Positions 14,213 through 59,743 of a DNA stretch of 64,000 bases are shown piece after piece. Source of the DNA: Patescibacteria group bacterium. Its GTDB lineage: Bacteria; Patescibacteriota; Minisyncoccia; UBA6257; GWB1-50-10. The stretch's first letter is position 1, and every line of letters begins with the position of its first letter. The notes below the pieces were generated by a model that was given only the letters and a program-made list of their open reading frames with translations, was not told where the DNA came from and did no database searches. Both the position numbers and the translations under genes were made by a program. The DNA lies in the NCBI GenBank assembly GCA_023474215.1, contig JAMCYI010000006.1:1452-65451 (forward strand), in the 5' to 3' direction.

Positions 14213-14224
14213 AGTTAACAAAAT

Positions 14225-14356: not shown

Positions 14357-14367
14357 CGACTAAATTT

Positions 14368-21611: not shown

Positions 21612-21673
21612 CGTTCACCATTATAAGACTCGCCGGGCAGAGTGTTAAATCGACCGGTGGATAACCCTCGCTC

Positions 21674-21756
21674 GCCCAAGCACCCCGCTCAGGCTGTCTC
21701 CGGGGCGACGCCCAAGTCTTAGCCTTCGCCGGGGTGCTTGGCTCGCTTTTTTTATT
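21674..21756 (+). terminator. second copy of the conserved-core hairpin element (arms gcccaagcaccccg/cggggtgcttggc) followed by 'tcgctttttttatttt'
   Basis: Core identical to 15053..15093. Arms differ but remain complementary. T-run on the + strand. Confidence 0.55.
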
Positions 21757-29002: not shown

Positions 29003-29053
29003 TATAGAGTTAAAAAGCCCTTTTCCTTTCCGTACTTATCCCCCAAAATCTTG

Positions 29054-29124
29054 CCCCCCGTTCTCCTCGAATTTTTGAAGGAGAGCGGGGGGCCTTCAAT
29101 TTTTGAAGGAGAGCGGGGGGCGGA
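29054..29124. repeat. tandem ~29-nt repeat element (same family as 9403..9474)
   Basis: Near-identical sequence. Confidence 0.6.
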
Positions 29125-29141
29125 AGTCGGGGACAGAAAAC

Positions 29142-38632: not shown

Positions 38633-38697
38633 ACATCAATTCTATCACTCTTTTTGATTAGAGTAATTAGATTAATTAGAAATTAGAATAATTTTTA

Positions 38698-40473
38698 CTA
38701 AGATACTTCCTTCTGGTAGCATTCCTCGCAGTATACGATCTCGGGGCGGTCGGGGGCGTAGGTCGATTCGAACTCGTTCGGACAATGGCCGTCGCCATGC
38801 GCGTGGGACACGGTATTTTGATACACGCCGTTCTCAGATCTCGTTCCGGCGCATTGGCACTTCCGATGCCAAAGATCCAACGGATTCCTCTTCCGCAGCC
38901 GGTCGAAATGCCGGCAGTTGGGGCAGAGGCGCGGCAAGGCGACGCCCATTTTTTGATAGAGCGACAGCTCTTCGGCCGTCATACGGAAAGCCGTCGTGCA
39001 CTGCTCCGTGCACTTGCCGGCATGAGCGCACTCAATGATATTTTTCAGGATGTTTTCATCCGCCGCTTTTATGTCGTCCGGGATATCGGCGTTCTTCATC
39101 GTTACCTGATAGTTCCTCCCTTCGGGGTCCTTCCATGCGTATCCTTTCGCGAGCGCTTCTTCTTTCGCGAGCGGGAAATATTCGATCGCAACCGTTTCGT
39201 TGTACGCGAAGGGCGAGAGGTCCGGCGGGAAGAACTCGCCATAGCCGTATGTTCTCCCCTTCTGGTCCACATACGGCATATCCTTCATATGCTGAATAAG
39301 CTTCGGAACCAGAGCTTCGTACTCTTCCTTGGCATATTGCTTGTTCAAAATGCAGTAGTGTTTATCCTTCATACCGACGCATCCGAAGAGATTCGAAGAA
39401 CGTTCGCAATTAATGGAATGGTAAATATCATTTCCATTAATGACGATCCATGATCCCACAATGCGGCTTCCGGGATAAATGCTCATCGAATTGTAGACCA
39501 GCTCGCTCTTCAGACCCATGTGGCTCGACGAATGGCTGTCCTTCGCGCCCGCCGCAACGAGGAACATGTCGCGGCAATCCTCCGTGCCGTCGAAGACCTC
39601 GAACGACCGGTGCACGTTCTTCGAATTGAAGATGTTGTCGCCGGTGCAATTGAGCGAATTGATGATGCGGTACGGCCGCACGATGTTTTTCAGGCGCTCT
39701 TTCGCGAACCGCTCTTTCGTTTCCGTAAGCGTCCGGTAGCTTCCGAGATTCATTTCGCCGACGAGCTTCTTGTATTCTTCCGGCGTCTTCCGCTCGCCGA
39801 AATAGTAATATTTCTGATTCCGCAGGTTCACCGATCCGAAGCAATCCGTGCAGCCGTTCAAATCGAATCCGAATTTCACGTCGACACAGTTGTTGAGGAA
39901 TCCGCCGAACGCCGATCGGGAACAATTCTCCGAATCGGTCAGCTCGTAGGAGAGCTCGGCCCGCGTCACCCAGTAGAGCTCCATCGCATTCTTGCAGTGG
40001 AAATTGAACGTCGCATGGAGGCAATCCTCGTTGAAATCGCCGCCGAAAACCATATAGCAATTCTTGTTGCTCTCGGTGAAATTGCAATATTCACTGTTGA
40101 CGCCGTTCCAGTTGTTGAGCGAAGCGAATGGCACGTCGTGCATTAGTTCCTTGATCTGCTGGAACAAGGGCCGCGAAAAATCAACGTCGCGTCCGTATTC
40201 GGTCGGGTCCCACGAATCGCCGTGCCAGACGCTCTGTTCGTATACCTTGAAATCCTTTTCCGGAGAATAAATGGAAAGGATGTCCTTGCCGGTCTTGGAA
40301 TCCTTCCGCCGGTAGAGGTTCCGCTCGTTGCGGAACGCCAAGCGCTGCTGAAGCCGGCAGTCGGGACAAAGCGTCTCTGCCGGCACCTTCATCATCTCGA
40401 AAAAGCTGAAATCGTCCGCTTCGAGCGTGAAATCTTGCTTGCAGTTTTGGCATTGCCGAATTTCCGAAGTCAT
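38698..40473 (-). CDS. Cys-rich multi-zinc-ribbon paralog family, member 1 of 10 (591 aa). Family not recognised.
   Basis: N-terminal CQNC..F.LE..DF.F...KVP..T.CPDCR.QQR.AFRNER.LY. Duplicated internal module '..CFGC..LR.K.YCILNKQYAKEEYEALVPKL'. C-terminal LCPNCRH..RL..RNP..LWHRKCQC...CPNEFE..YAPDRPE.VYCEECY. Confidence 0.6.
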   Translation of the reverse strand: MTSEIRQCQNCKQDFTLEADDFSFFEMMKVPAETLCPDCRLQQRLAFRNERNLYRRKDSKTGKDILSIYSPEKDFKVYEQSVWHGDSWDPTEYGRDVDFSRPLFQQIKELMHDVPFASLNNWNGVNSEYCNFTESNKNCYMVFGGDFNEDCLHATFNFHCKNAMELYWVTRAELSYELTDSENCSRSAFGGFLNNCVDVKFGFDLNGCTDCFGSVNLRNQKYYYFGERKTPEEYKKLVGEMNLGSYRTLTETKERFAKERLKNIVRPYRIINSLNCTGDNIFNSKNVHRSFEVFDGTEDCRDMFLVAAGAKDSHSSSHMGLKSELVYNSMSIYPGSRIVGSWIVINGNDIYHSINCERSSNLFGCVGMKDKHYCILNKQYAKEEYEALVPKLIQHMKDMPYVDQKGRTYGYGEFFPPDLSPFAYNETVAIEYFPLAKEEALAKGYAWKDPEGRNYQVTMKNADIPDDIKAADENILKNIIECAHAGKCTEQCTTAFRMTAEELSLYQKMGVALPRLCPNCRHFDRLRKRNPLDLWHRKCQCAGTRSENGVYQNTVSHAHGDGHCPNEFESTYAPDRPEIVYCEECYQKEVS

Positions 40474-40514
40474 ACGTTTATTTTACACTAAATCACCACT
40501 CCGGCCTAAAAGGA

Positions 40515-40598
40515 GCGAGCCAGATGCCTCCGCGAAGGCTAAGACTTGGGCGTCGCCCCGGAGACAGCCTGAGCGGAGGTATCCGGCGAGCGACAAAG
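40515..40598 (-). terminator. third copy of the conserved-core hairpin element (arms cctccgc/gcggagg), reverse orientation, 3' of array member 2, with a 'gctcgctccttttagg' tail on the minus strand
   Basis: Core is an exact reverse complement of the 15053..15093 core. Alternative pairing partner 'gcggagg' lies within the last codons of member 2. Confidence 0.55.
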
Positions 40599-42341
40599 TT
40601 ACACTACCTCCGCGTTATAGCACTCTTCGCAGTAGACCGTTTCTGGCCGGTCGGGAGCGAACGCCGTCTCAAATTCGTTCGGACACTTTCCCGAATGGCC
40701 GTGATTGGACTTATCGCACATGCAAGAGCGACGCCAGAGCTTGAGGGGCGTTCCCTGCTTCAGGCGCTCGTAGTGCCGGCAGTTCGGACAGAGATGCGGA
40801 AGCGGCAAATCCATCCTCCTCAAGAACTGCAACTCCGGAGCGATGATCCTGAACGCGCCCGTGCATTGCTCGCCGCATTTTCCTCCGTGAGGGCATTCAA
40901 TGATCTGATCCAGAATATCGTCTTCTACACCCTTAATATCGTCAGGCAATTCGCTCGCTTTCATTGAAACCGCATAATCTTTCGCCGCCGCGTTTTCCCA
41001 CTGATATTTCTCTTCCGCCGCTCCTTCCGCCGTCAGCGGGAAATACTCCTCAGCGATCGTCTCGTTGTACGCGAAGGGCGAGATCTCGATCGGGAAGAAC
41101 TCTCCGTATTTATATATTCTCCCCTTCTCGTCTGCATACGGCATCTCGTCCATGTGTTTTTTGATCTTCGGGATCAGGGCCTCGTATTCCTCCTTGGAGT
41201 ACTGCTTGTTCAGGATGCAAAAATCCTTTTTCCGCACGCCGACGCACCCGAAAAGATTGGACCCTCCCCGGCAGTAATCCGAATACTCCACGTTCACGAT
41301 ATTCTCGTAGGTATTCGAGGAGAAGAAATTGCGGGAATCGTGATAAGCGACATTGACCCCCTCGTAACTCAGTTCCCCGCCGTCCCCCGCGCCGTGGAGG
41401 TCCATGCAGTCCTTGATCTTGAGTGCCTGCGTGCAATACCGCAGGTTTTCGCATTCATCGATGTTGAACGATTTGAAAATGTTTTTGGAATTGATGATAT
41501 GGTTGCCGCTCACGTTCACAACCTTATTCGTGAACGCAAACCTCTGGATGGAATTCTTCTTCAGTTCGGCATACTCGCCCTTGAGCGACTCGATGGTTTT
41601 CGCACTCCCCAATCCTATCCTTTTCAGCCTTTCTTCGTAATCCTCTTTGGTAAGCTGTTCGCCCCGGAATACATATGATTTGTTTCTCAAATTGGACCCC
41701 ATGAAACAGCTCTTGCAGCCCGCGCAGTTGTACAGAAAATAAGAATCCATGCAGTCGCGGCAATTCTGGAGGTAGGCGGAATGGACCGCATGGTTGGTAT
41801 CCATAGATTCATAGCAAAATTCCGAATCGGTAACGACATTCGAGTCAAAGACGTCGCGATCGTGGAATGCTTTATGGCTGTAAGCGATATTTTCGGAATA
41901 AAAAGTCGAAGGCGCCATATAGACATCTTTCGAAAGCCACGTGAAATTGGAGTAGGGCGCATTCTGATTTTGAAGGCTTTCCAAGGCCAGACGGGGAACC
42001 TCCGCTAAAAGCTCCCGGAATTGCTCGAAGAACGGCTTCGAGAAATCGTAGTCGCGGCCGTACGACATGACGTCCCATTTATCGGAAAACCAGCAGTCGT
42101 AGCAGTGAACTTTAAACGGCCGGTCTCCGGAGTACATCGAGATGATGGATTTGCCGCAAAGATCGCACGTATCCTTGTACAAACTGCGTTCGTTCCGGAA
42201 CGCCATTCGCCGCTGCCGCCGGCATTCCGGGCACCAGGTTGGCGGAGGAACTTCGATCTTCTCGTAGAATGCGAAATCCTCCGGCTCAACCGTGAACTCT
42301 TTTTTGCAATTCTGGCAGGTTCTGGTTTCGGCTTTGGTCAT
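40599..42341 (-). CDS. Cys-rich multi-zinc-ribbon paralog family, member 2 (580 aa)
   Basis: Same architecture. The N-terminus MTKAETRTCQNCKKEF and the 5' flank are shared with member 7. Confidence 0.6.
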   Translation of the reverse strand: MTKAETRTCQNCKKEFTVEPEDFAFYEKIEVPPPTWCPECRRQRRMAFRNERSLYKDTCDLCGKSIISMYSGDRPFKVHCYDCWFSDKWDVMSYGRDYDFSKPFFEQFRELLAEVPRLALESLQNQNAPYSNFTWLSKDVYMAPSTFYSENIAYSHKAFHDRDVFDSNVVTDSEFCYESMDTNHAVHSAYLQNCRDCMDSYFLYNCAGCKSCFMGSNLRNKSYVFRGEQLTKEDYEERLKRIGLGSAKTIESLKGEYAELKKNSIQRFAFTNKVVNVSGNHIINSKNIFKSFNIDECENLRYCTQALKIKDCMDLHGAGDGGELSYEGVNVAYHDSRNFFSSNTYENIVNVEYSDYCRGGSNLFGCVGVRKKDFCILNKQYSKEEYEALIPKIKKHMDEMPYADEKGRIYKYGEFFPIEISPFAYNETIAEEYFPLTAEGAAEEKYQWENAAAKDYAVSMKASELPDDIKGVEDDILDQIIECPHGGKCGEQCTGAFRIIAPELQFLRRMDLPLPHLCPNCRHYERLKQGTPLKLWRRSCMCDKSNHGHSGKCPNEFETAFAPDRPETVYCEECYNAEVV

Positions 42342-42390
42342 TTGATCATTCGTATATTGAAAATTAAAAATTGTAAATTGAAAATTTTAA

Positions 42391-44133
42391 CTACACGACT
42401 TCGGCGTTGAAGCATTGTTCGCAATAGATGACCTCCTTCCTCTCGGGCGCGTAGCTCGTCTCGAACTCGTTCGGGCACGGTTTGCCTCCGTGGAAATGAG
42501 TTTTCAAATCACACATGCACGTACGGTGCCACAATTTCATGGGATTCCGCTGTTTCAAGCGTTCGTAGTGCCGGCAGTTCGGGCATAACCGAGGCAGGGA
42601 CAGATTCATCCGCTTATAGAATTGAAGTTCCTGGGGAGCAATCTTAAAGGCGCCGACACACTGATGGAGACATTTCCCCTCGTGCGCACACCCGATAACC
42701 TCGTTCACGATGGAGTCGGTGACGTCTTTGATATTGTCCGGAAGATCCCGAGAAAGAATGGTTGTTTTGTATTCCTTTATGTCTAGATCTTTCCACCGAT
42801 ATCCTCGGCTTATCGCTTCTTCCTTCATAAGGGGGAAATATTCCTGCGCGATGGTTTCGTTATAGGCGAAAGGAGAAATTTCCGGCGGAAAGAATTCACC
42901 GTAGCGGTATACTCTCCCCTTCTTGTCGATGTAAGGAACATCATTCATCTGTTTTATGATTTCCGGGATCAACTCCTCGTATTCTTCCTTCGCGTACTGC
43001 TTATTCAGGATGCAGTATTGCTTGCTTCGGAGACCGATACAGCCGAAACAATCATTACATCCGTGGCAGTTGTAACTGTAGAGAATATTCTTTCCGCCCC
43101 AAACGACAATGTCATTCACCAAACGATGAGCCTTCAGCCCAGAATCGATGATCTCGTAGCCCAATTCGAGGTCGCCCGGGCCATAACTGTCATAAATGTC
43201 ACTCATGACGACGCCGCCGTTCATGGTATATTTGCAATCTTTTGCGTTATCGAAAAGGTCGAAGCAAGACTTGCAGTTTTTTACGTTCGTCAAATTGTCG
43301 CCCGTCGAATCCGGCGCGTTTACCAAAAAAGCGAATTTGCGGATCGCTTTCAACTTAAGGGCATCAAAATCGCGCTTGAGCCGTTCGAGTTCTTGGTAAC
43401 TCCCCAGATTGAATTTTTTCAGTTCCCTTGCGTACCCCTCCGAAGAGTACTGCTTATTGAACATGCAATAACTCTTATTCCTCAAATTCGAACACCCGAA
43501 GCAGTTCGAGCATCCTTTGCAGTTATAGAGAAAATACGAATTGTTGCATGAATCGCAATTATCGGAAAAAAAAGTGCGGTACAATTTCATACCCGTGATG
43601 GTCTCGTAGCAAAGTTCGAGATAGGAGGACGACAAAACATCAAGGGAGTCCTTCGACATCCACGCTTTATTCGCATACATCACCCGCTCGTTCATCCACG
43701 AGCCGAACACCAGGTAGCAATCCTTGGAACGCCCGCTATGATTGGTGTATTCGCAGTTCTCGGACTGGGCATTGAAGATCGCCGGCATTGGCGCGCGTTC
43801 GAGAAGCAACCGGAATTGATCAAAGAACGTCTCCTTGAAATCATAGGGGCGGCCGGAACCAAGCGGGTCCCACTGATCGCTCCACCAAACATCACGATCA
43901 TACACCGTCACCTTGGCATCCGGCGAAAAGATAGAAATGACCCGTTTCCCCGTCAGGTCACAATTCCTCTGATAGAGCGAACGTTCATTCCGCCACGTCA
44001 TCTTGCGCATCAGGCGGCAATCCGGGCAGAAGGTCGGCGGCGGAACCTTGATCTTTTCATAGAAAGAAAGGTCCTCGGCTTCGATCGTGAACTCCCGGTG
44101 GCAATTCTGGCACGTCTTTTTCCTCGATTCCAT
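42391..44133 (-). CDS. Cys-rich multi-zinc-ribbon paralog family, member 3 (580 aa)
   Basis: Same architecture. Confidence 0.6.
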   Translation of the reverse strand: MESRKKTCQNCHREFTIEAEDLSFYEKIKVPPPTFCPDCRLMRKMTWRNERSLYQRNCDLTGKRVISIFSPDAKVTVYDRDVWWSDQWDPLGSGRPYDFKETFFDQFRLLLERAPMPAIFNAQSENCEYTNHSGRSKDCYLVFGSWMNERVMYANKAWMSKDSLDVLSSSYLELCYETITGMKLYRTFFSDNCDSCNNSYFLYNCKGCSNCFGCSNLRNKSYCMFNKQYSSEGYARELKKFNLGSYQELERLKRDFDALKLKAIRKFAFLVNAPDSTGDNLTNVKNCKSCFDLFDNAKDCKYTMNGGVVMSDIYDSYGPGDLELGYEIIDSGLKAHRLVNDIVVWGGKNILYSYNCHGCNDCFGCIGLRSKQYCILNKQYAKEEYEELIPEIIKQMNDVPYIDKKGRVYRYGEFFPPEISPFAYNETIAQEYFPLMKEEAISRGYRWKDLDIKEYKTTILSRDLPDNIKDVTDSIVNEVIGCAHEGKCLHQCVGAFKIAPQELQFYKRMNLSLPRLCPNCRHYERLKQRNPMKLWHRTCMCDLKTHFHGGKPCPNEFETSYAPERKEVIYCEQCFNAEVV

Positions 44134-44182
44134 ATTTTGTCTTAGGGTAATTAGGTTAATCAGAAATTAGAATAATTCGCCT

Positions 44183-45985
44183 TTATACTTTCTCCTTCTG
44201 GTAGCATTCGGCGCAATAAACAATATCGGGCCTCTCCGGTGCGAAGCTCGTCTCGAACTCATTCGAACAATGCCCATCGCCGTGTGCATGCTTCGAGAGA
44301 TTTGTATAGACGTAACTTGTTTCCTGCCCTGAGCCTGTCGAAGGGTCGCTTGCTGCTCCCCCACACTGGCATTTCCGATGCCACAGCTTGAACGGATTCC
44401 TTAATGCCAGGCGCTCGTAGTGCCGGCAGTTCGGACAGAGGCGCGGGAGGGGCAGGTTGAATTTGCGGTAGAAATCCAATTCTCCGGGAATGATTTTGAA
44501 GGCCTCGGTGCACTGATGGGTGCACTCACCCTTATGCGCACAGCCGATCACTTCTTTCAGAATATCGTCCGACACATCTTTGATGTGGTCGGGAAGATCT
44601 TCCGCTTCCACCGTGACGGCGTATTCCTTTTTTCCGAGATTCTTCCATACATACTTCTTCGAGAGTGCCTCTTCCTTTTTTAACGGGAAATATTCCTGCG
44701 CGAGGGTCTCGTTGTACGCGAAGGGTGATATTTCATGCGGGAAAAATTCGCCGTACGCGTATTTCCTTCCGGCTGCGTCCACGTACAGCGTTGCGTTCAT
44801 CTGTGCGATAATCTTCGGGACCAATGCTTCATATTCATTCTTGGAGTACTGTTTGTTCAAAATGCAGTATTCTCTGCTTCGCAAACCAACGCAGCCGAAG
44901 AGATGCGAGGAGGTGTGACAGCAATAGACGTATTGGACGTCATGGCAGCCGTGCGTATAAACGGTGAATTTGTAGTTCGACCCATTGATGCCTGAGTCGA
45001 CGCCTTCATACAGCAGTTCGCCGTTCGCCCCGAATCCGTACCCGTCGTATGAATCCTTGAGATCGATGGCGTGGATGGCGTATTTGGAATCCTCCGTTCC
45101 GCCGTAGCCGTCAAAACACTCTTTGCAGTTCTTGGCATCGCCGACATGGTCCCCCGTCGTACCAGCGCATCGGAGGAACGCCGCAAATTCCCGCGGAAAT
45201 TTGCGGTGGAATTCCTCGAACTCTTTCTTGAACGCTTCGAGATTCTGATAGCTTCCGAAATCGTATTTGGCCCGTTCTTTTTGGTATTCTTCTTTTGAGT
45301 ATTGCTCGTTGAAGATGCAGTATTGCTTGTTCCTCAAGTTGACGCATCCGAGCGAATTGTTCGTGTTGGTGCAATGCCGGAGGAACATCGAATCCATACT
45401 TTGTCCCGCATCGTACGAGAAAAACACCCGATTCAAGTTGTCAGAGAGCGTATCCTCATAGCAAAGCTCGGCCTTCAAATCATTGTAGAGATCCATCGAG
45501 TCCTTCCCTTCCACGATGCCACTCGAGAACGAAACGTTATCGCACTCATAGGAGGCATAGAGAAGATAGCAATCCTTCGAATCGGCATTGTGGTTCCCGT
45601 AATCGCTCCGTGTGACGTTGGTATTCGCGAGATTGGGAAGCGGCGCTTGGTGCAGGAGTTCTCTATACTGCTCAAAAAACGGACGCGAGAAATCATAGTC
45701 GCGGCCCGACTGGAGATTATCCCATTTGTCGCTCCACCAATAATCCCGATCGTAGACGACCATGTTGCTCTCAGGTGAGAACATCGTGAGAAATTCCTTT
45801 CCCGTCGCTGCACACTTCCCCTTGTAGAGCGTCCGCTCATTTCGCCACGTGAACCTCCTTTGCATCCGGCAATCCGGACAAAACGTGGGTGGTGGTACTT
45901 GAATCCTTTCATAGAAACTGAAATCCTCGGGTTCGATAACGAACTCTTTCTTGCAGTTTTGGCAGGTTTTCGATTCGGCAGCCAT
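44183..45985 (-). CDS. Cys-rich multi-zinc-ribbon paralog family, member 4 (600 aa)
   Basis: Same architecture. The C-terminus 'HAHGDGHCSNEFETSFAPERPDIVYCAECYQKEKV' and the 3' flank are shared with member 1. Confidence 0.6.
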   Translation of the reverse strand: MAAESKTCQNCKKEFVIEPEDFSFYERIQVPPPTFCPDCRMQRRFTWRNERTLYKGKCAATGKEFLTMFSPESNMVVYDRDYWWSDKWDNLQSGRDYDFSRPFFEQYRELLHQAPLPNLANTNVTRSDYGNHNADSKDCYLLYASYECDNVSFSSGIVEGKDSMDLYNDLKAELCYEDTLSDNLNRVFFSYDAGQSMDSMFLRHCTNTNNSLGCVNLRNKQYCIFNEQYSKEEYQKERAKYDFGSYQNLEAFKKEFEEFHRKFPREFAAFLRCAGTTGDHVGDAKNCKECFDGYGGTEDSKYAIHAIDLKDSYDGYGFGANGELLYEGVDSGINGSNYKFTVYTHGCHDVQYVYCCHTSSHLFGCVGLRSREYCILNKQYSKNEYEALVPKIIAQMNATLYVDAAGRKYAYGEFFPHEISPFAYNETLAQEYFPLKKEEALSKKYVWKNLGKKEYAVTVEAEDLPDHIKDVSDDILKEVIGCAHKGECTHQCTEAFKIIPGELDFYRKFNLPLPRLCPNCRHYERLALRNPFKLWHRKCQCGGAASDPSTGSGQETSYVYTNLSKHAHGDGHCSNEFETSFAPERPDIVYCAECYQKEKV

Positions 45986-46009
45986 ACTAAATACTATATA
46001 CCAAATACC

Positions 46010-47752
46010 TTATACTATCTCTTTCTGGTAGCACTCCTCACAGTAAACCCTCAAGTGCAATTCAGGGTCATAAGCCGTCTTGATATCTTTCCCGCAGTTG
46101 GAGCAATGAGATCCAAAAAGATCATACGGGCTTCTTTTTCTGAAGCGGTTCAGCAATCTGGTTCGGGGATGCAAGAGCGGCACCGGGATTGAATGTTTCC
46201 GGTAGAAGTCGAATTCCTGCTTGGTTATCTTGAAAGGTTTTCTCGAGACCTCACAAATAATGGTTGAATCCAGTATCGAATCAGCGACATTCTTTATGTT
46301 ATCCGGTATGTTATTAGCGGCCGGAGACGCTTCAGGCGCTTTCTCGTTCTTGAGGCGGGGTTTCATTGTGCTGTACCTATTTTCATCAAGAGGACACAGG
46401 GCTCCGGCATAACTGTCTTCATAAAAGAAGAACGCGTTACCAAGCGGCAAGAATTCGCCGTAACCACCTCCCTGAACCATGCTTGTTTTTATTTCATCAA
46501 CCAGTTTCCAATATTCGTCTTCGGAGTACTGTTTATTCAAAATACAGTATTTCTTTTTGCTGAGTCCGCTGCAACCAAAACAATACTGGCAATCGGAACA
46601 CTCGAATGAGTACTCGGTCTCCAGGCAGTTTTCCACGAAGTAAGAAGCTATTACCCTGTTGACGGATAAGGCCTCAATGACGTTATAGCATTCTTGCCCC
46701 GGCCCGAAGATCGTGACATCCATGCAATCCGTAGCGCCGATGAAGTCCTGCCCATAGCGGATGTTTTCGTTTTTATAAAAAGTTAAAAGGAATTTGGCGC
46801 TGGTACCCCAGAAGGACTGAACACAATTCTTGCAGTCTCTCAAGTGGTCACCCAAAGAGCCGGGGGAATTCTTTGCCCAGAGGGCCTTAAAAATGCCGTT
46901 GGTACGCAGGAATTCATCGAACTTCTTCTTGTACTCTTCGCGTATTTTTCTGCTCCCCAAATCAATCTCCGCCATCCTCTTTTCATAGTCCTCTTTCGAA
47001 AGCTGCTCGTTGAAGAAGCAGAATTTTTTATTCCTTAAGTTACTGCACCCGAAGCAGTTCTGGCAGTTATGGCAGTCAAAGAGGAAATACGAATTGATGC
47101 AGTCGCTGGAATTTTGAATATGCTGGGAATTGTGGATGCGGTCCGAGTCGATGATTTCGTAAGAATCCTGGACGTGGTCTGCAGACGACAAATCAAGCGA
47201 ATTCTGTGAATAAATCACCCAAAAGCCGTACGAAACGTCTTGAGCCATGCCGATGATCGAGGAAAGATAACAGTTTTTGACATCGAAACTCTGAACGGTG
47301 TATTCGCTGTTCACAATATCTTTGTTGTACCTTGCGAGAGCCCGGTGAGGCACCGCTCTTAAGAGATCAATGAACTGGCTCGAAAAATCGCGGTTCGCAT
47401 CATAATTTTGCCCGAAGGTGAGCGGATCCCACGCGTCCGACCACCAAAATTTATTGTCGTAGATCCGGTATTCGTTCTCCTCGGACATTTGAGACAATGC
47501 TTTTTCTTCCGGATGGGCAAAACAGGTCTTCTTGTAGAACTGGAAAATGCTTCCCGACATCGCGGTCCTTTTTATCATCCTGCACTTCGGACATTCTCTC
47601 GGCGGTAAAACGTTCAACTTGCGGCAGAAATCGATGTCCTCCGAAAAAATCTCAAAGCCTGAACCGCACATCGTGCATATGCGCGAGCCCGGTTTCGCTT
47701 CATTCAAAACCTTCCCAATCACCGCATCAAATTTTGGTGTTTTATCCTTCAT
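46010..47752 (-). CDS. Cys-rich multi-zinc-ribbon paralog family, member 5 (580 aa), the most divergent copy
   Basis: Retains the WWSDAWDP, '..CFGCS.LR.K.FCF.NEQLSKEDYE', 'KKYCILNKQYSEDEY' and terminal CxxC pairs, but has a different N-terminus. Confidence 0.55.
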   Translation of the reverse strand: MKDKTPKFDAVIGKVLNEAKPGSRICTMCGSGFEIFSEDIDFCRKLNVLPPRECPKCRMIKRTAMSGSIFQFYKKTCFAHPEEKALSQMSEENEYRIYDNKFWWSDAWDPLTFGQNYDANRDFSSQFIDLLRAVPHRALARYNKDIVNSEYTVQSFDVKNCYLSSIIGMAQDVSYGFWVIYSQNSLDLSSADHVQDSYEIIDSDRIHNSQHIQNSSDCINSYFLFDCHNCQNCFGCSNLRNKKFCFFNEQLSKEDYEKRMAEIDLGSRKIREEYKKKFDEFLRTNGIFKALWAKNSPGSLGDHLRDCKNCVQSFWGTSAKFLLTFYKNENIRYGQDFIGATDCMDVTIFGPGQECYNVIEALSVNRVIASYFVENCLETEYSFECSDCQYCFGCSGLSKKKYCILNKQYSEDEYWKLVDEIKTSMVQGGGYGEFLPLGNAFFFYEDSYAGALCPLDENRYSTMKPRLKNEKAPEASPAANNIPDNIKNVADSILDSTIICEVSRKPFKITKQEFDFYRKHSIPVPLLHPRTRLLNRFRKRSPYDLFGSHCSNCGKDIKTAYDPELHLRVYCEECYQKEIV

Positions 47753-48074
47753 CCAAAAGTTCCCTCGCTATCCGTTTCTCAAGTCGGTCCATCGCTTTTG
47801 GAAAAGAAGTCTCCATATTAACGTCGAACTTCTTCGAGAGAACGAGGATTGACCACAAGCAATCCATGAGTTCGTGTTCCAGTTTTTCGTTTAGTGCTTC
47901 TGCGGTTCGTACTCCTTCTCTCGCCATGACGAGTTTCATGAGATCCCCCACATCACCCACGAATCCTTCCATGATCTGGGCTTCTGTCCACTCCTTCCCG
48001 TATTTCTTCTTTTCGAGCTCCGCGTACTTTTCCCGTACCTCCACAGCACGGGAGATTAAGTCTTTAATTTCCAT
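47742..48074 (-). CDS. MazG-like nucleotide pyrophosphohydrolase (YpjD-type all-alpha NTP-PPase) embedded in the paralog array
   Basis: 110 aa. 'EGFVGDVGDLMKLV...EHELMDCLWSILVL' EExxE/D motifs. Overlaps the member-5 start by 11 nt. Confidence 0.65.
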   Translation of the reverse strand: MEIKDLISRAVEVREKYAELEKKKYGKEWTEAQIMEGFVGDVGDLMKLVMAREGVRTAEALNEKLEHELMDCLWSILVLSKKFDVNMETSFPKAMDRLEKRIARELLDEG

Positions 48075-48092
48075 AGATTCATTATAAGCGAA

Positions 48093-49784
48093 CTATCCAA
48101 CCTCCGCATTATAACAGCTTTCACAATACACAATCTCCGGACGTTCGGGGGCGTACGAGGTTTCAAATCCATTTTGACACGAGCTGGAATGATTGTGATT
48201 TTGCTTATCACACATACAACTCCTGTGCCAAAGCTTCACGGGGTTTTTGAGCTTCAACCGATCCTTGAGCCGGCAGAAAAAGCACCTTCGCGGCACCGGG
48301 ATGCCATTCTTTTTGTAGAACGCCAGCTCTTCGGCGATGACTTTGTAATTTCTCCCGCATTCCATACAAGCGAGAATTTCATCCACGATTGAATCGGGTA
48401 CGTCACTGATCGCGTCGGGGATTTCTCGCATTGTCTCTTTTCCCGTCGTGAATTGGAGCTTGTCTTGCCATCGATACCCTTTCGCGAGCGCTTCGTCTTT
48501 CGTAAGCGGATAGCTGTCCTGCGCGAGAGTTTCGTTGTATCCGAAAGTGGAAAGCGGCACCGGGAAAAACTCGCCCCATTCCCCTCTTTTTTTCATATTC
48601 TCTATGATTTCCGCCTTGAGCTTCTCATACGATCCTTTGTCGTACTGTTTGTTCAAGATGCAGTACTTGGCGCTCTTCAAGCCCACACATCCAAAAAGTT
48701 CTTCCGACGATTGGCAACTGTCTGCATAGAGAACGTTCCGATCCTTATGGCAGTACGACGTGAAATGCGTACCGTACGAATTATCCGGATTGATTCCTTC
48801 GTAGCAAAGCTCCTGCTCGCCCCCGCTTGCGCAGTCGTAACTGTCTTTGATCGTGTCGCCATTCTCGAAGAATTTCGAATCCTCGACGCGGACAGCATTC
48901 CAGCAATTCAGAGCATTTTTCGAATTCACAAGATAATTTCCCGTGCAATTTACGCAATTCATGAAATTCGCCGGTCTTCGCGGGAATTTCAGTATGAAAC
49001 CGAAAAACTCCTTTTTAGCCCGTTCCGATCCGCTCCACGTGTCGAGCCGGTAACCGGCCACTATTTTTCCATACTCCTCTTTCGAGTACTGCTCGTTCTT
49101 CACACAGTACTTTTTGTGGCGGAGGCCGATCGACATAAAGCAGTCGGTGCAATCCTTGCAGTCGTAGCAGAAAGCGCAATCGATGAGCGATTCCGAATTG
49201 AAGATGAATCGGCACGAATTACTCTCTCCCACGTAAATCGACTCGTAGATATTCCGGGCATTCGAGAAAACCGTCATCACGTCCACCATATCCTTCGCGT
49301 TCACCATATGGTAGCAATACATGCAATTCTCCACTTTCCATGAGTTCATCGTGAGGTAACAGTTTTTGCCGAGGGCGAAGTAGTTCGTGTATTCGCACCC
49401 GACGCTCGCGATGTTGTTGTCGTTCAGAATCGCGAGAGCCGGCACGGTATCAAGAAGTTCCCGATACTGTTCGAAGAACGGCCGCGAGGGATCGTAATCC
49501 CGCCCGTACTGTCCAGGATCCCAGCCATCGCTCCACCAGCACTTATTGCAGTAGATCGGAACGAGCTTCTCCGGCGAGTAGATAGAAATGATTTTTCGGC
49601 CGCAGAGCCCGCACTCGCGATTATAGAAATTGTAGTCGTTCCGCCAGGCAAGCCGCCGCTGCCTCCGGCAGTCGGGGCATTGGGTCGCCGCCGGTACGCC
49701 GATGCGGTTATAAAAAGAAAAGTCATCAGGTTCGATGACGAACTCCTGACGGCAGTTTTGGCAGCTTTTTGTTTCCGGACTCAT
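48093..49784 (-). CDS. Cys-rich multi-zinc-ribbon paralog family, member 6 (563 aa)
   Basis: Same architecture. ATGA overlap with member 7. Confidence 0.6.
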   Translation of the reverse strand: MSPETKSCQNCRQEFVIEPDDFSFYNRIGVPAATQCPDCRRQRRLAWRNDYNFYNRECGLCGRKIISIYSPEKLVPIYCNKCWWSDGWDPGQYGRDYDPSRPFFEQYRELLDTVPALAILNDNNIASVGCEYTNYFALGKNCYLTMNSWKVENCMYCYHMVNAKDMVDVMTVFSNARNIYESIYVGESNSCRFIFNSESLIDCAFCYDCKDCTDCFMSIGLRHKKYCVKNEQYSKEEYGKIVAGYRLDTWSGSERAKKEFFGFILKFPRRPANFMNCVNCTGNYLVNSKNALNCWNAVRVEDSKFFENGDTIKDSYDCASGGEQELCYEGINPDNSYGTHFTSYCHKDRNVLYADSCQSSEELFGCVGLKSAKYCILNKQYDKGSYEKLKAEIIENMKKRGEWGEFFPVPLSTFGYNETLAQDSYPLTKDEALAKGYRWQDKLQFTTGKETMREIPDAISDVPDSIVDEILACMECGRNYKVIAEELAFYKKNGIPVPRRCFFCRLKDRLKLKNPVKLWHRSCMCDKQNHNHSSSCQNGFETSYAPERPEIVYCESCYNAEVG

Positions 49785-51550
49785 GCGACTTCACTGTTAT
49801 AACATTGCTCGCAGTAGATGATTTCCTTCCCCTCGGGAGCATATGGCGTCTCGAACTCGTTCGGACACCGGCCGGAATGATCATGGTCAGGTTTCTCACA
49901 CATACATTGCCGATGCCAGAGCTTCATGGGCGTGCGCCCCTTGAGGCGTCCGTAATGCCGGCAATTCGGGCAAAGTGTCGGGAGCGGAATGTTCATCTTT
50001 TTATAGAACGCGAGTTCTTCCGGCGTGATGCGGAATGCTTCCGTGCATTGCTCGTCGCATTTCCCCTCATGTGCGCATCCGATAACCTCTTTCACCATAT
50101 CGTCCGAAACGATGCGAATGGCGTCGGGCAAGTCGGCCGGCTTCAGGGTTATTTCGTAATTTCTCGCCTCCGGATCACGCCACTGGTATCCCATTGCCGT
50201 CGCTTTTTCTTTCGTCGAAGGGAAATACTCCTCGGCCACCGTCTCGTTGTATGAAAAAAGGGCGATTTCCGGCGGGAAAAACTCGCCGAAACCGTACCGC
50301 ACTCCCCTTTTATCGACATACGGCATCTCGTCCATGTGTTTTTTAATTTTCGGGAGAAGTTCTTCATATTCCTCCTTCGAGTATTGCTTGTTCAAAATGC
50401 AATACTCCTTGTTCCGCATGCCGTAACATCCGAACATATGGTGCGACCCGTGCGTGTGGACACTCCACCACACGTCGCTCGAATCATAGACTACGACACC
50501 GCCCACGATCCTCGATGAGCTGTTGATATCGACGCCTTCGTAGAGGAGTTCCGACTTCCAGCCGGCCCCCGGCCCGCAATCGTATATTCCCTTGCTTCCG
50601 AATCCGCTCCAGTTTACATACCGGCAATCTTCCGTGTCGTCGCCCACGAAATCGAAGCAATCCCGGCAGTTCTTCGTATTCTGCAAATGATCGCCCGTCG
50701 AACCGACCGAATTCACGATGTCCGCATATTTATGGATCGCTTTCACATACACCTCGTCCTGGAATTTCCGTCGGACTTCTTCGAGGACCTTCCGGCTTCC
50801 GAGGTTCAGTTCCTTGACCCTCTTTTCGTATTCGTCCTTCGATATCTGCTCGTTGAAAATACAATATTGCTTATTTCTCAAATTCGCACATCCAATGCAG
50901 TCCCGGCAGTTCTTGCAGTTGTAAAGGAACCAGGAATCGCTGCAACCCTCGCAGTTCGAGGAATACAAGAGCCGGTACGAACCGCTGACGTACGAACCAT
51001 CGTAGCAAAGCTCGCTGCCGTCGACGATATAGAGATCGAGCGAATCCTTATCCTTCACCATCCGGTTCGCGTACATCACGTTCTCGTTCCATCCGCCGGC
51101 GGAAACGAGGTGACAGTTCTTGTTCCACGCGGCGGAGCTGCAATATTCGCTATTCACCGAATTCGTGTTCGAAAGCGTGATTAAGGGCACGCGGCTGAGA
51201 AGCTCCGCGTACTGTTCAAAGAACGGCCTCGAGAAATCATAGTCCTTCCCGTACTGCATCGGATCCCACGCGTCACTCCACCAGTATTTCTGATCGTAGA
51301 CGGTGTACGGCGCGTTCGCCGGATGGAGGCTGATAATGTCTTCCGAATGTCCCGGTACACCGCACTTCCGCTTATAGTAGGTACGTTCGTTCCGCCACAC
51401 CATTCGCCGCGCGGCGCGGCATGCCGGGCACCACGTCGGGACCGGCACGCCGATCTGTTGGTAAAAATCAAAATCTGCAGAATCGATAACGAACTCTTCT
51501 TTGCAATTTTGGCAAGTTCTGGTTTCAGTTTTGGTCATTTGATCATTCAT
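49781..51550 (-). CDS. Cys-rich multi-zinc-ribbon paralog family, member 7 (589 aa; true start probably MTKTETR at about 51538)
   Basis: Same architecture. 5' UTR contains AT-rich direct repeats shared with member 2. Confidence 0.6.
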   Translation of the reverse strand: MNDQMTKTETRTCQNCKEEFVIDSADFDFYQQIGVPVPTWCPACRAARRMVWRNERTYYKRKCGVPGHSEDIISLHPANAPYTVYDQKYWWSDAWDPMQYGKDYDFSRPFFEQYAELLSRVPLITLSNTNSVNSEYCSSAAWNKNCHLVSAGGWNENVMYANRMVKDKDSLDLYIVDGSELCYDGSYVSGSYRLLYSSNCEGCSDSWFLYNCKNCRDCIGCANLRNKQYCIFNEQISKDEYEKRVKELNLGSRKVLEEVRRKFQDEVYVKAIHKYADIVNSVGSTGDHLQNTKNCRDCFDFVGDDTEDCRYVNWSGFGSKGIYDCGPGAGWKSELLYEGVDINSSSRIVGGVVVYDSSDVWWSVHTHGSHHMFGCYGMRNKEYCILNKQYSKEEYEELLPKIKKHMDEMPYVDKRGVRYGFGEFFPPEIALFSYNETVAEEYFPSTKEKATAMGYQWRDPEARNYEITLKPADLPDAIRIVSDDMVKEVIGCAHEGKCDEQCTEAFRITPEELAFYKKMNIPLPTLCPNCRHYGRLKGRTPMKLWHRQCMCEKPDHDHSGRCPNEFETPYAPEGKEIIYCEQCYNSEVA

Positions 51551-51662
51551 TGGAAATTGATTGAAAATTAAAAATTGGAAATTGAAAATTCCACCTTGAA
51601 TTCATTATAAAACAAATGCTCCACGGTTAGCCGCAGAGCATTAAAACAGTCAACAAGGGGGG

Positions 51663-52103
51663 TTATATCGTGGGGCTGACGACGATGATCCCGCCGAGGA
51701 TCGGATCTTCTTTTTCCTCGGACTTGAAAGAAACGATCTTCCAGTCCGGTCGCAAGCTCAAGTCGTCATATTCGACATCGCCGAGTTCGGCGTGCACCGA
51801 CGACCAGAACACCTTGCGAAGGATGTCCGCCTTGTCCATGAGGTTGCGGTAATCGCGGAAAACTTTTTCGCACTCTTTTTCCATGCCGTCGCCGCCGAAG
51901 AGGAACCGAGCGTGCTTTTGCTCGTGATCTTTCTTCATCTTACTTGCTTCTTTGGCAAGTTTGGCATGGAGAGAATAGATCCGCTTCAAGTTATCATTGA
52001 CCTCGATTACCACACGACCTTCCGGATAGGGACCTTCCGCTACCGGCTTCACGATCGTAGTACTGTCGATCTCCTTTTGGAGATCTTCGAGAAATGTGGC
52101 CAT
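51663..52103 (-). CDS. hypothetical protein (146 aa) within the array interruption
   Basis: ORF only. No recognised motif. Confidence 0.4.
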   Translation of the reverse strand: MATFLEDLQKEIDSTTIVKPVAEGPYPEGRVVIEVNDNLKRIYSLHAKLAKEASKMKKDHEQKHARFLFGGDGMEKECEKVFRDYRNLMDKADILRKVFWSSVHAELGDVEYDDLSLRPDWKIVSFKSEEKEDPILGGIIVVSPTI

Positions 52104-53373: not shown

Positions 53374-53613
53374 ATGAAACCAGGTGGTATAATAAGAGTG
53401 ATGAAAAGCCGCGAGAATGCCATGTACGACACCACGAAACTCGCCAAATTCTTCGGCGTGACCGAACGAACCGTTCTCGAATGGTGCCGGAAGGGCAAAT
53501 TGCCGGCTTTCAAAATCGGCAGAAAGTGGAAAATCAGGGTCGTCGACCTCCAGAAAATGATCGACCGCAAAATACACACTTCCAAGGGAAATACTCCCCC
53601 ACACTTACTGTAA
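53374..53613 (+). CDS. excisionase/Xis-family helix-turn-helix DNA-binding protein (HTH_17-like)
   Basis: 'TTKLAKFFGVTERTVLEWCRKGKLPAFKIGRKWKI' matches the excisionase-type HTH pattern. It is the only + strand gene within the array. Confidence 0.55.
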   Translation: MKPGGIIRVMKSRENAMYDTTKLAKFFGVTERTVLEWCRKGKLPAFKIGRKWKIRVVDLQKMIDRKIHTSKGNTPPHLL

Positions 53614-53732
53614 TGATTTAATTACCGAAGGTCGGCGGCGGGACTTTAATCCGTTCGTAGAAACTAAAATCCTCCGGCTCGATAGCGAACTCCCGGTGGC
53701 AATTCTGGCATTGCCTCGTTTCAGAGTTCATG

Positions 53733-55442
53733 TCAGTTGAAGATATCCCTCAAGTAGCATTCCGTGCAGTAGACGACGGGGGCTTCATCCTCGCGGTAGT
53801 GCGTCCGGAGCTCTTTCCCGCACTTCGTGCATGTCCGTTCGATGAGAGACATCTGCTTGGCCCATTGCCGCACTTTTTCCTCAATACGACAGAAGGGACA
53901 TCGCCGCGGGAGGGGGAAGTTGTACTGCCGCAGGAACTGCAACTCATAGGGCGTGATTTTGTATCCCCGCGGGCACGCCGTGCACTTGATCACTTCTTTC
54001 AAAATATCATCCTTCGCATCCCGGATATGATCGGGGAGATCGGCGGCATCCATAGTCGATGCGTGTTCGGAGGGCGAGATCTCTACCCATGAAAGCCCTT
54101 CTCGCTGCGCTTCACCCTCTTCCAAGGGATGGAAGAGGTAGGCAAACGTGTCATTATAATCATGCGGCGAAAGCGTCGCCGGGAAGAACTCTCCGTAGCG
54201 GTACGTCCGCCCGGCGGGATCCACATACGGCGTCGAATTCATCTGCCCGATGATCTTTTCCCGCATCGCGTGGTATTCTTCCTTCGTATACGGCTTATTG
54301 AAGATGTAATACTGTTTGTTCCGAAGACCCGAGCATCCAAAAAGATAGGAACATCCCATGCAGCTTTTCGAATATTCCACGTGGTGGCTCGCGTGAATGT
54401 CCTGGCTGAATTTGACGTCGGCGACCTGGTTTCCCACCGTGATGCTGTCGTAGATGCGCTCCGCGCCCTCCCCCCAGTCGGTATAATCATAGCTGTCTTT
54501 CACGGTCGGCGCCTTGATGAGCATCATATACTTCGAATCTTCGCAGTAGCCGGAGTCGTAGCATTCCTTGCAGTTCTTGGAATAGAAAACGTAGCTCCCC
54601 GTGCAGTTGTCGTTGAACATATAGTCGTAGCAGGGATTCGGGATCGAATTTTTCCACACTTCCGCCGAACGCTTTTTCATTTCCTGGTACGTTTTGTAGG
54701 AACCGAGGTCGATCCCGTCCATCTTTTTCTCATACTCTTCCTTGGTCAACTGCTCGTTGAGGAACACGTACTTCTTATTGTGGACGTTCGCGGATCCGAA
54801 GCAATGCTCCGCATTCCGGGCATCCCGCAGGAAATAGGAGTCGAGCGAGCTGTGGACGTTCCCCCGCGAACCGTGGACGCGGTTGTTCCGGAAACCGTTC
54901 ATGCCGTCGTAGCATTCGGTACACTCCCAATAGACGCTGCAGTCGAGGAGCGCTTTGTCTTTCGTCAGATAAAAGCCGTACTCGCAGTCGTCGCTGTTGT
55001 CGGAATAAAAGATGAGATAGGAATTCTTCGAGCTCGCGCAATGGTTGGTGTAGGGAGAAAGTTCCTGCACGTCCTTCGTCACGGCGAGTCCCCGAATCGG
55101 AACTCGGTGGAAATGCTCGTTCAGTTGTTCGAAAAACGGCCGCGAGAAATCATAATCACGTGCATAGTCCTCGGTATTCCATCCATCACCCCACCAGCAG
55201 TCGGGGCAGTAAACCCGATAGGGCGAATTCGGCCGGTACATCGATATTTTCTCTTTCCCGCAAAGATCGCACTTCCGCTTATACAAACGGAAGCCCTTGA
55301 GCCACATGAGCCGCCTTTCGAGCCGGCATGCAGGACAGAAGGTCGGCGGCGGGACCTGGATCTTCTCGTAAAAGATGAAATCATCGGGTTCGATAATGAA
55401 TCCTTGATGACAATTCTGGCAAATTCTTGATTCGGAACTCAT
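53733..55442 (-). CDS. Cys-rich multi-zinc-ribbon paralog family, member 8 (start at MSSESRICQNC)
   Basis: Same architecture. ATGA overlap with member 9. Confidence 0.6.
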   Translation of the reverse strand: MSSESRICQNCHQGFIIEPDDFIFYEKIQVPPPTFCPACRLERRLMWLKGFRLYKRKCDLCGKEKISMYRPNSPYRVYCPDCWWGDGWNTEDYARDYDFSRPFFEQLNEHFHRVPIRGLAVTKDVQELSPYTNHCASSKNSYLIFYSDNSDDCEYGFYLTKDKALLDCSVYWECTECYDGMNGFRNNRVHGSRGNVHSSLDSYFLRDARNAEHCFGSANVHNKKYVFLNEQLTKEEYEKKMDGIDLGSYKTYQEMKKRSAEVWKNSIPNPCYDYMFNDNCTGSYVFYSKNCKECYDSGYCEDSKYMMLIKAPTVKDSYDYTDWGEGAERIYDSITVGNQVADVKFSQDIHASHHVEYSKSCMGCSYLFGCSGLRNKQYYIFNKPYTKEEYHAMREKIIGQMNSTPYVDPAGRTYRYGEFFPATLSPHDYNDTFAYLFHPLEEGEAQREGLSWVEISPSEHASTMDAADLPDHIRDAKDDILKEVIKCTACPRGYKITPYELQFLRQYNFPLPRRCPFCRIEEKVRQWAKQMSLIERTCTKCGKELRTHYREDEAPVVYCTECYLRDIFN

Positions 55443-57136: not shown

Positions 57137-57139
57137 GTA

Positions 57140-57262
57140 GAAATTTTACATCAAATATAGGGCTCTCGGCAGTCCTCCGGATTCCCGAGGACCAAAAAAA
57201 GCGAGCGGGGCGCCCATGGTGCCCCGCCCGCGATACCCCCGAGCTGCCTTCGGTGTTCGGGG
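57140..57262 (-). terminator. cluster of three GC hairpins between array members 10 and 9
   Basis: Inverted repeats gcggggc/gccccgc and cccccga/tcggggg seen directly. Confidence 0.4.
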
Positions 57263-57265
57263 GGG

Positions 57266-59518: not shown

Positions 59519-59589
59519 ACTTCAATTTATTTACTTTTTACTCGACCTTTGGAGAAAAAATGAAGAAATCCAAATTCCAAATGTCAAAT

Positions 59590-59743
59590 CAATGCTCAAA
59601 ATCCTAATTTCAAAATCCTAAATCCTAAATAAACCCCCCAATACTCTAAATTCAAAATTCTAAACGCATGTTTTGGTCATTAAAATTTGTATTTCGATAT
59701 TGTTCAGGATTTGGTGCTTAGGATTTAGAATTTTAAACCAGGG
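59590..59743. repeat. second copy of the ~150-bp inverted-repeat AT-rich element (see 14225..14356)
   Basis: Aligns with the first copy at roughly 80% identity. Same orientation on the + strand although the flanking genes are on the opposite strand. Confidence 0.55.

Follow-up and report, generated by a model that had tools for sequence, protein, structure and literature searches.

Mosaic gene ends and AT-rich repeat spacers in an old array of cysteine-rich paralogues from a Patescibacteria genome: a probable case of short-patch gene conversion

The window analysed here, a stretch of 64,000 nucleotides (nt) from the genome of a Patescibacteria group bacterium, carries on its minus strand an array of 10 paralogous genes, members 1 to 10, of 563-600 codons each (38698-51538 and 53733-58972). 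We find that these genes are mosaics, that two AT-rich repeat tracts lying in their spacers, A and B, are present or absent among related genomes, and that both tracts are dispersed. The reading we hold to be probable is that of an old array whose gene ends are overwritten by short-patch gene conversion and whose spacers are supplied by dispersed AT-rich repeat elements; the recombination mechanism, and the functions of tracts A and B, we infer from these patterns. The first-pass annotation of this DNA had described a recent segmental duplication or gene conversion with modular exchange under way between copies, members 2 and 7 sharing their 5' ends and leaders, members 1 and 4 their C-termini and 3' flanks. 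Three related genomes with a matching neighbourhood served for comparison: L003 (the same as L007), L004 (of which L006 is an independent copy), and L005 joined to L083. They have in common with the window pepA, a glycosyltransferase-like gene, EamA and TraD-like genes. The window sequence is the reverse complement of that of contig DAIBZB010000001.1 (GCA_027423645.1), and about 84 kilobases (kb) of the source genome were covered.

The array is not recent. Identity among its paralogues is 30-53% in protein and 65-77% in DNA, the latter over local stretches only, and single members have orthologues in other genomes, several at 71-94% DNA identity; together these two facts rule out a recent segmental duplication. 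The body of member 2 (40599-42341, 580 amino acids, aa) is 88% identical in DNA to its orthologue in L005, 85% to that in L003 and 71% to that in L004. Member 3 (42391-44133, 580 aa) has the orthologue L3d in L003 (80% over the body), and member 4 (44183-45985, 600 aa) has X5_c (79%) and X4_c (75%). Member 6 (48093-49784, 563 aa) matches at 82% an orthologue in L083 that occupies another array position. Member 7 (49781-51538, 585 aa, or 589 aa with a start at 51550) and its L083/L005 orthologue are 94% identical over codons 101-500 (1134/1200 bases), or 93% as the body figure in the best-neighbour table. The nearest relative of member 1 (38698-40473, 591 aa), X5_h of L005, is only 58% identical over its body.

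The first-pass annotation expected mosaicism to surface in separate trees of gene segments, and it does. Trees of the gene bodies recover the orthology groups with 100% bootstrap support, and trees of the 5' ends group the genes by genome or with other paralogues; in the bootstrap tree of the first ~37 codons L4c joins L4d at 100% and member 2 joins member 7 at 54.5%. The patches behind these groupings have sharp boundaries in sliding windows and in patch tables, with Fisher p values from 5e-3 to 8e-29. L4c and L4d agree at 100% over codons 1-16 and at 96% over codons 17-40, versus 51% over codons 41-500 (Fisher p = 8e-29), and the independent metagenome-assembled genome L006 carries a converted 5' end of the same type with identical sequence. 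L3d and L3g agree at 96% over codons 1-16 versus ~50% over the remainder (Fisher p = 2e-11), L3e and L3f show 90% patch identity, and member 1 and its L005 relative stand at 90% over codons 1-16 versus 57% over the remainder. Taken together, the patterns strongly support the view that short-patch exchange at 5' gene ends is real.

Within the window the exchange is clearest for members 2 and 7. Their N-termini, MTKAETRTCQNCK and, with the start at 51538, MTKTETRTCQNCK, both read MTK(A/T)ETRTCQNCK as annotated; an in-frame ATG at 51550 would prepend MNDQ to member 7. A comparison of the window with itself by BLAST, equivalent to a dot-plot, yields the off-diagonal match 42187-42386 versus 51384-51590 (77% over 208 nt), which runs from coding sequence into the flank, and a second one, 38658-39399 versus 44142-44911 (66.5% over 780 nt), so that the flat self-comparison which the first-pass annotation named as its refutation did not arise. 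Over codons 1-16 members 2 and 7 are 90% identical, versus 54-62% elsewhere; with the leader added, 75/85 aligned bases agree, versus 55% for codons 17-500 (Fisher p = 1e-10). Member 2 is in this segment closer to member 7 than to its own orthologues (90% vs 71%), and over codons 5-16 it shares 33/36 bases with member 7 and 27/36 with its own orthologue. The two genes also have the variants of the tract A unit in identical order, with the N position as the sole difference, and agree in all of the following 19 bases, GAATGATCAAATGACCAAA.

The exchanged 5' module of member 2 (42294-42390, minus strand) consists of a 49-nt spacer with tract A and of codons 1-16, and it is absent from the orthologues. 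The L003 and L005 orthologues share an ATGA with the gene before them and begin with MNSETK or MNAETK; that in L004 has a spacer made of a GC-rich element and a promoter, and starts with MPSESR. The replaced 5' module of member 7 (51485-51596, minus strand), a 61-nt leader with tract A plus ~18 codons, is 4-54% identical to the orthologue, with 84-100% identity on either side; upstream, that level holds through the neighbouring orf146, its terminator hairpin and the TATAAT box. In L083 the 61-nt leader is absent and the gene has a leaderless arrangement of TATAAT, 7 nt and ATG. Member 7 and its orthologue are 55% identical over codons 1-16 versus 94% over codons 101-500 (Fisher p = 1e-12), and 67% identical over the last 50 codons. 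At the level of single bases their alignment has clean breakpoints at ~51596, ~51485 and ~49930, the last of which bounds a replaced 3' segment (49781-49930, minus strand) where identity falls from 92-98% to 62-68%; the downstream gene differs as well. Tract A is absent upstream of the member 2 and member 7 orthologues in L003, L004, L005 and L083, so that member 2, and possibly member 7, acquired the tract A module once the L005 lineage had split off. At the head of the L003 array stands the leader in unexpanded form, TATAAT, 6 nt and ATGGTGGATTTCAATATACTAATGATCAAATGACCAAAACTGAAAC, with a single TTTCAAT seed.

Tract A itself, AATTTTCAATTTNCAATTTTTAATTTTCAAT on the gene (minus) strand, is 31 nt long and made of four 7-nt units (AATTTTC, AATTTAC, AATTTTT). 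The annotated AT-rich sequence with direct repeats is thus there in front of both genes, member 2 (42356-42386) and member 7 (51560-51590). A search allowing at most 3 mismatches, applied to both tracts with 100 shuffles as control, finds tract A in the window only at these two sites and in none of the shuffles, and Tandem Repeats Finder assigns both copies a period of 7 and 4.4 copies. A third copy, AATTTTCAATTTGCAATTTTTAATTTTCAAT, identical save for the N position, lies in the same genome ~9 kb beyond the window start (L099, 20571-20601), in a 270-nt spacer between a kinase-like and an rsgA-like gene with no family member adjacent; its likeness to members 2 and 7 ends with the 31-nt tract. 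In the members 2/7 module the tract is followed by AATGATCAAATGACC and, further on, the CQNCK codons, and it ends 14 nt (member 2) and 21 nt (member 7) before the ATG. There is no Shine-Dalgarno (GGAGG-like) site near either ATG, and tract A RNA forms less structure than shuffled controls do (z = +1.0 and +2.15).

In one case the tract is placed between members 3 and 2, and in the other between the member 7 ATG and a TATAAT -10 box (51604-51609, minus strand), which lies 13 nt upstream of the tract, is conserved in L083, and is itself preceded by a terminator-like hairpin (51615-51642). A regulatory role, as an element of the 5' untranslated region of member 7, is plausible. More broadly, tract A may act as an AU-rich, structure-free leader or intercistronic spacer for ribosome loading independent of a Shine-Dalgarno site. 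Tract A together with the leader sequence ATGACCAAAAC aligns with the inner left arm and centre of a class of palindromic elements, the r-type, which suggests that the module may derive from half of such an element, the element's ATG having been taken over as start codon. A sigma-70 scan of 38-53 kb returned fewer sites than shuffled sequence and flagged tract A on the opposite strand only (TTGAAA, 17 nt, GAAAAT), a weak match to the promoter consensus and possibly an antisense promoter. In a distant Staskawiczbacteria genome a secA-like open reading frame (ORF) contains, in frame, (AATTTTC)4 plus CAATCAAATCCCAATGA, matching 41/45 bases of the member 7 leader (L021, 4649-4692).

Tract B, AATTATTCTAATTTCTRATTAAYCTAATTACYCTAA, is 36 nt long and occurs in the window only at 38658-38693 and 44142-44177 (minus strand), again with no match in the shuffles, so the tract reported downstream of both member 1 and member 4 is likewise present. 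Copy 1, to which Tandem Repeats Finder gives a period of 7/9 (38657-38693), stands between member 1 and pepA and is followed by TGATAGAAT, 6 nt and the pepA ATG; copy 2 stands in the 49-nt spacer of members 4 and 3. The tract has a core of 26 bases, TTCTAATTTCTNATTAANCTAATTAC, found exactly in 11 public metagenome contigs, 8-9 of them distinct, with GC contents of 29-47%. One of these, L090, bears three family genes and a TraD-like gene. The core has no match in viral contigs, which leaves a viral origin without support, and none in 78 distinct GTDB loci around family genes. Given that the two window copies agree at 33/36 positions and a foreign copy, in L098, at 35/36 with copy 2, foreign copies are as near as the window pair, and tract B is uninformative on exchange between members 1 and 4.

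In the metagenome contigs tract B forms the outer left arm of a nested imperfect palindrome of 100-250 nt, whose inner arms consist of heptamers in array, for instance (AAATTCC)n, and whose centre is CAATATCAAATGACCAAAA; one such element, L091a, folds with -50.4 kcal/mol (z = -6.3). The left arm is conserved far above the right arm, and in 7/12 cases the element abuts or supplies the stop codon of a co-directional gene. Because the 7-nt unit contains TAA, the core has TAA in all three frames, as can be read directly from the letters, and we would take tract B for a gene-end module with stops in three frames.

That members 1 and 4 have near-identical C-termini, and exchange them, did not hold up. 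The DNA of their last 50 codons agrees at 64%, similar rather than near-identical, and each 3' end pairs with its own relatives: in the best-neighbour table that of member 1 goes with the L005 relative (83%) and that of member 4 with the L004 orthologue X4_c (76%), and a bootstrap tree without L005 joins the latter two at 81%. The long C-terminal insert of members 1 and 4 is also found in L3a, L3e, L3f, L4b and L4c, at least five more members. Tract B is the conserved arm of a dispersed element; in the relatives, neither the member 4 orthologues nor the member-1-like gene are followed by it. A conversion tract that covers the two C-termini and has tract B as its 3' portion was rejected: the DNA between a shared 17-mer, GAATGCTACCAGAAGGA, and tract B is unshared, and the 17-mer also occurs in the L005 relative of member 1.

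Repeats of this kind are not confined to the array. The ~84 kb of the source genome hold three copies of tract A, two of tract B and four r-type palindromes of ~150 nt, namely r6 (14213-14367, with heptamer arms and the centre AATGACCGAAAC), r7 (59519-59732, of the same class) and two just outside the window (L101, 1396-1500 and 3140-3270). Their arms are heptamer arrays, AAATCCT / AGGATTT, around the centre AATGACC[AG]AAAC, and related elements are present in contig L091. At the sites that correspond to those of tracts A and B, the relatives L003, L004, L005 and L083 have neither tract, and r7 is missing from the matching L004 spacer. The window copies of A and B are without a clear partner arm; the metagenome B elements are long palindromes with a weakly conserved right arm. 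Period-7 arrays are common, 124 in 1.29 Mb of these genomes. The 24-nt spacer of period 7, GGTATTTGGTATATAGTATTTAGT (45986-46009, minus strand), offers TATAGT, 7 nt and ATG before member 4 and looks like a portable promoter-like module: the same 24-mer precedes pepA in L003 (11747-11770), and near-identical copies precede pepA and a 551-aa family gene in L005 (1057-1074, 13533-13555). Across these genomes pepA is preceded by one of two different modules, and which of them it has is at odds with the species tree. In L091 an IS200-like Y1 transposase gene (10587-10997; Pfam E = 1e-41) with GC hairpins of its own sits amid the AATTAG-type arrays of a B-type element. It was rejected as the mobiliser: the association was found once, and neither the other contigs nor the window have such a gene. 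No other transposase was seen near any of the elements. A loose search for the centre motif (at most 5 mismatches) was discarded as returning only noise.

The mechanism we favour combines these two lines. Short-patch homologous recombination, that is, interlocus gene conversion, seeded by the conserved terminal DNA that encodes zinc ribbons, would repeatedly overwrite the first ~16-40 and the last ~50 codons of one copy from another and would drag the adjacent spacer along. One such module, tract A, then AATGATCAA, then ATGACCAAA with the ETRTCQNCK codons, would have come to stand before members 7 and 2 after the split from the closest relative. The spacers would be built from small dispersed AT-rich elements with arms of 7-nt period, B being the highly conserved outer arm of the nested palindrome that many Patescibacteria-like metagenome contigs carry and A a second unit, and unit number may shift by replication slippage. 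Together, A and B would turn an operon with translational coupling into genes that each have a start of their own. The pattern resembles interlocus gene conversion in other tandem paralogue arrays in its short patches, its sharp identity boundaries, its segment trees that contradict the gene tree, its partner pairs that vary by genome and its conserved terminal segments as recombination anchors. It differs in that patches of ~50-120 nt are limited to the gene ends of copies that are elsewhere ~50-55% identical in DNA, that non-coding leader or spacer modules are carried along, and that one edge of the member 2 patch is without homology. The end-swapping would be ordinary interlocus gene conversion, unusual only in the shortness and the terminal position of its patches.

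Several points weigh against this reading. The downstream edge of the member 2 module lies within conserved CQNCK-coding DNA, but its upstream edge abuts the member 3 stop codon, where there is no donor homology, and pure homologous conversion does not account for that edge. The third tract A copy, with no family gene beside it, might mean that members 2 and 7 were each given a copy of the element independently; some of the likeness in the 5' coding DNA would then come from the family-wide CQNCKxEF motif, the baseline identity of codons 1-16 being already 65-80%. A and B in the window were found without target-site duplication, full right arm or transposase. All genomes and sequences compared are metagenome-assembled, and two of the assemblies, GCA_027423645.1 and GCA_023380715.1 (L099 and L100), are identical over 21.8 kb and hence not independent. 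The promoter, leader and terminator roles, finally, are predictions from sequence pattern.

Did members 2 and 7 exchange their ends at all? They may not have done so, each instead having been reached separately by a small mobile AT-rich element, the centre of which, with AATGACCAAAA, provided the start codon, with the B copies arriving just as independently and the likeness of the first codons reflecting the element plus family conservation. We think this rather unlikely. Several observations speak for it: the third tract A copy stands away from any family gene, r6, r7 and two L091 elements have the centre AATGACC[AG]AAA after heptamer arrays in alignment with the leader, foreign B copies are as near to the window copies as these are to each other, and both r7 and a GC-rich hairpin element are present or absent between relatives. 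Insertion alone, however, does not explain why members 2 and 7 have the same order of unit variants, 19 further identical bases and 33/36 matches over codons 5-16 against 27/36 with the orthologue, whereas the third copy is alike over the 31-nt tract only; and here, too, neither a terminal duplication nor a transposase was found. The tracts could instead be old regulatory sequences that were duplicated along with the genes and held by purifying selection while the coding regions diverged, which would fit tracts 92-97% identical beside coding DNA that is 55-77% identical. It is contradicted by L003, L004, L005 and L083, in which the orthologues of members 2 and 7 have no tract A, and by the lack of tract B at the member 4 orthologues and the member-1-like gene, and copies stand by unrelated genes and in unrelated genomes; we give this explanation little credence.

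An origin of the shared ends in metagenome assembly, with reads of different paralogues or strains joined at conserved segments, has to be considered as well. Short-read assemblers switch paths precisely at conserved gene ends, the JGI contig L102, of the same organism, ends (14070-14189) in a TraD chimera just before the array, and the two NCBI assemblies are not independent. Yet a separate ENA assembly, L002, reproduces the order of member 3 end, tract A, member 2, GC-rich element, member 1, tract B and pepA with 2 mismatches in 5.3 kb, L004 and L006 agree with each other, as do L005 and L083, and the pattern is found again across four genomes, the pairs of partners differing, all of which makes an artefact very improbable. 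Convergence of the two A tracts, and of the two B tracts, by slippage from AT-rich seeds is harder still to credit. Period-7 AT-rich tracts are, with the 124 arrays counted, frequent enough, and the L003 leader has a TTTCAAT seed from which one could start, but three tract A copies have an identical order of unit variants, and the B core of 26 bases, which is no simple repeat, has the same letters in contigs that are unrelated. Gene conversion at the ends of an old array, with spacers from dispersed elements, thus remains for us the probable account.

A further-reaching proposal about the elements themselves we put forward only tentatively. Undescribed AT-rich nested palindromes, widely shared among Patescibacteria, would serve as portable gene-boundary cassettes, offering stops in three frames, -10-like boxes for leaderless transcripts and, through the centre AATGACCAAAA, a start codon; their arms would be arrays of 7-nt units, one with a 26-base core identical across genomes of 29-47% GC, and their halves A and B would have been recruited into the array, uncoupling the operon and becoming hot spots of end-swapping. 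The AT-rich elements appear to be undescribed, and the processes behind the shared flanks are familiar ones. Searches of the literature, both for the sequences of the tracts and for Patescibacteria repeat elements, turned up nothing specific, and Rfam gave no match at gathering score over the whole window, the GC-rich hairpin included, and for r7 only chance microRNA hits at a permissive E-value.

Heptamer repeats have precedents, the short tandemly repeated repetitive (STRR) sequences of heterocystous cyanobacteria being one. TAACTGA repeats are intergenic heptamer repeats found before start codons in Beggiatoaceae, Cyanobacteria and Bacteroidetes, and a translational role involving S1, Csp and leaderless-type ribosomes has been put forward for them without proof (MacGregor 2015, PMC4679880). 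Like the tracts described here they are 7-nt direct repeats in 2-6 copies just before start codons without a Shine-Dalgarno site, scattered over the genome and present in distant lineages too. Here, in contrast, the units are AATTTYC and TTCTAAT, far fewer copies have been found so far, the arrays also form arms of larger palindromes, and one array lies within a module exchanged between paralogues. Miniature inverted-repeat transposable elements (MITEs) such as the Correia elements of Neisseria, and repetitive extragenic palindromes with their mosaic forms (REP/BIME), share with the palindromes a length of 100-250 nt, multicopy intergenic occurrence, imperfect symmetry, variability between close relatives, a position at gene ends, and promoter-like and terminator-like features. 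Unlike these, the elements described here have arms of AT-rich 7-9-nt unit arrays rather than one inverted repeat, with the left arm better conserved; no target duplication or cognate transposase was identified, and A and B in the window are half elements. The arrays of the TIGR-Tas systems (TIGR, tandem interspaced guide RNA), known from bacteria of the Candidate Phyla Radiation (CPR), have two alternating repeats of 8-12 nt, 9-nt spacers and a 36-nt unit beside a Nop-domain gene (Science 2025, PMC12045711). What they have in common with the tracts is a repeat array of short period in the small genome of a parasitic bacterium, but we rejected the tracts as TIGR arrays, their period of 7 being free of spacers as against the 36-nt unit (PMC12045711).

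The role considered for the leaders has to be seen against the gene starts of this genome. At 5-8 nt upstream of the ATG most window genes show a TAnAAT box, commonly with a TG in front of it, and they have no Shine-Dalgarno site (for example 38633-38640, 40474-40487, 45986-46002 and 57137-57150), so that leaderless transcripts would be the norm, judging by the sequence pattern. In a few genes, such as orf146 (51663-52103), a strong AGGAGG site is found instead. The family genes of L003 overlap by ATGA, the design of translational coupling. At the head of that array (L003, 1170-1220) TATAAT and 6 nt are followed by a 10-codon upstream ORF, MVDFNILMIK and a stop, whose TGA shares bases with the start codon of the first family gene, the same ATGA coupling as between the genes of that array; the window counterpart of its ATG reads AGG.

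The family proteins have CxxC zinc ribbons at their N- and C-terminal ends. Matches to the treble-clef Pfam families zf_Tbcl and zf_Tbcl_2 are borderline, with member 7 at 24.3 bits versus a cut-off of 24 and the other members under the cut-off, and no other named family was found for the members, neither an NCBIfam match nor a PDB sequence match. The predicted structure (predicted local distance difference test, pLDDT, 87; predicted template modelling score, pTM, 0.90) has a beta-solenoid-like middle with the zinc ribbons terminal, and a fold search of the PDB returned nothing at E below 0.05. More than 7,900 homologues are in the protein database, all named 'hypothetical', and the few with a named source come from Patescibacteria lineages. 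The paralogues are thus old, uncharacterised cysteine-rich proteins, predicted to have a zinc ribbon at each end and a beta-solenoid-like middle. The end-swapping pattern points to this middle as the carrier of specificity particular to each copy. Given that the ends are homogenised within a genome and the middles are orthologous, the terminal 40-50 codons should be omitted when family trees are built or orthologues defined. The family often lies in arrays. The AT-rich elements give a lead on gene boundaries, promoters and translation starts in CPR bacteria, which cannot be grown alone and here appear to be largely leaderless. The conserved 26-base B core offers a handle for a genome-wide census and for protein-binding work.

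The remaining members, delineated like the others from ORFs and alignment, are member 5 (46010-47752, minus strand, 580 aa), the most divergent, and members 8, 9 and 10 (53733-55442, 55439-57136 and 57266-58972, minus strand). Self-BLAST also recovers an N-terminal remnant of an eleventh member (53618-53731, minus strand), 37 codons reading MNSETRQCQNCHREFAIEPEDFSFYERIKVPPPTFGN up to a stop codon. It adjoins a small excisionase-type helix-turn-helix gene (53374-53613, plus strand), and the site looks like a deletion or insertion scar. The overlapping junction of members 7 and 6 (49468-50049) is homologous to that of members 9 and 8 (55126-55707), at 68% over 582 nt, which suggests that a two-gene unit was duplicated long ago or that the junctions have a recombination joint in common.

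Between members 2 and 1 lies the GC-rich hairpin element (40474-40598, minus strand), followed by TGTAAAAT, 6 nt and ATG. It is ~110 nt long with a conserved core of 41 nt, and its outer stem varies yet still pairs (6/25 compensatory pairs). At this junction it is an insertion relative to L005, flanked by the direct repeat TAGTGTAA, and more copies are found in the window (15055-15118, 21668-21754), in L004 (9685-9752), in L005 (6359-6419) and in L006 (920-987). Two further families of GC-rich hairpin repeats, terminator-like and with copies up to 97-100% identical, occur at gene ends, one at 9403-9475, 29053-29125 and 11-63, the other at 2401-2433, 2844-2876 and 6676-6715.

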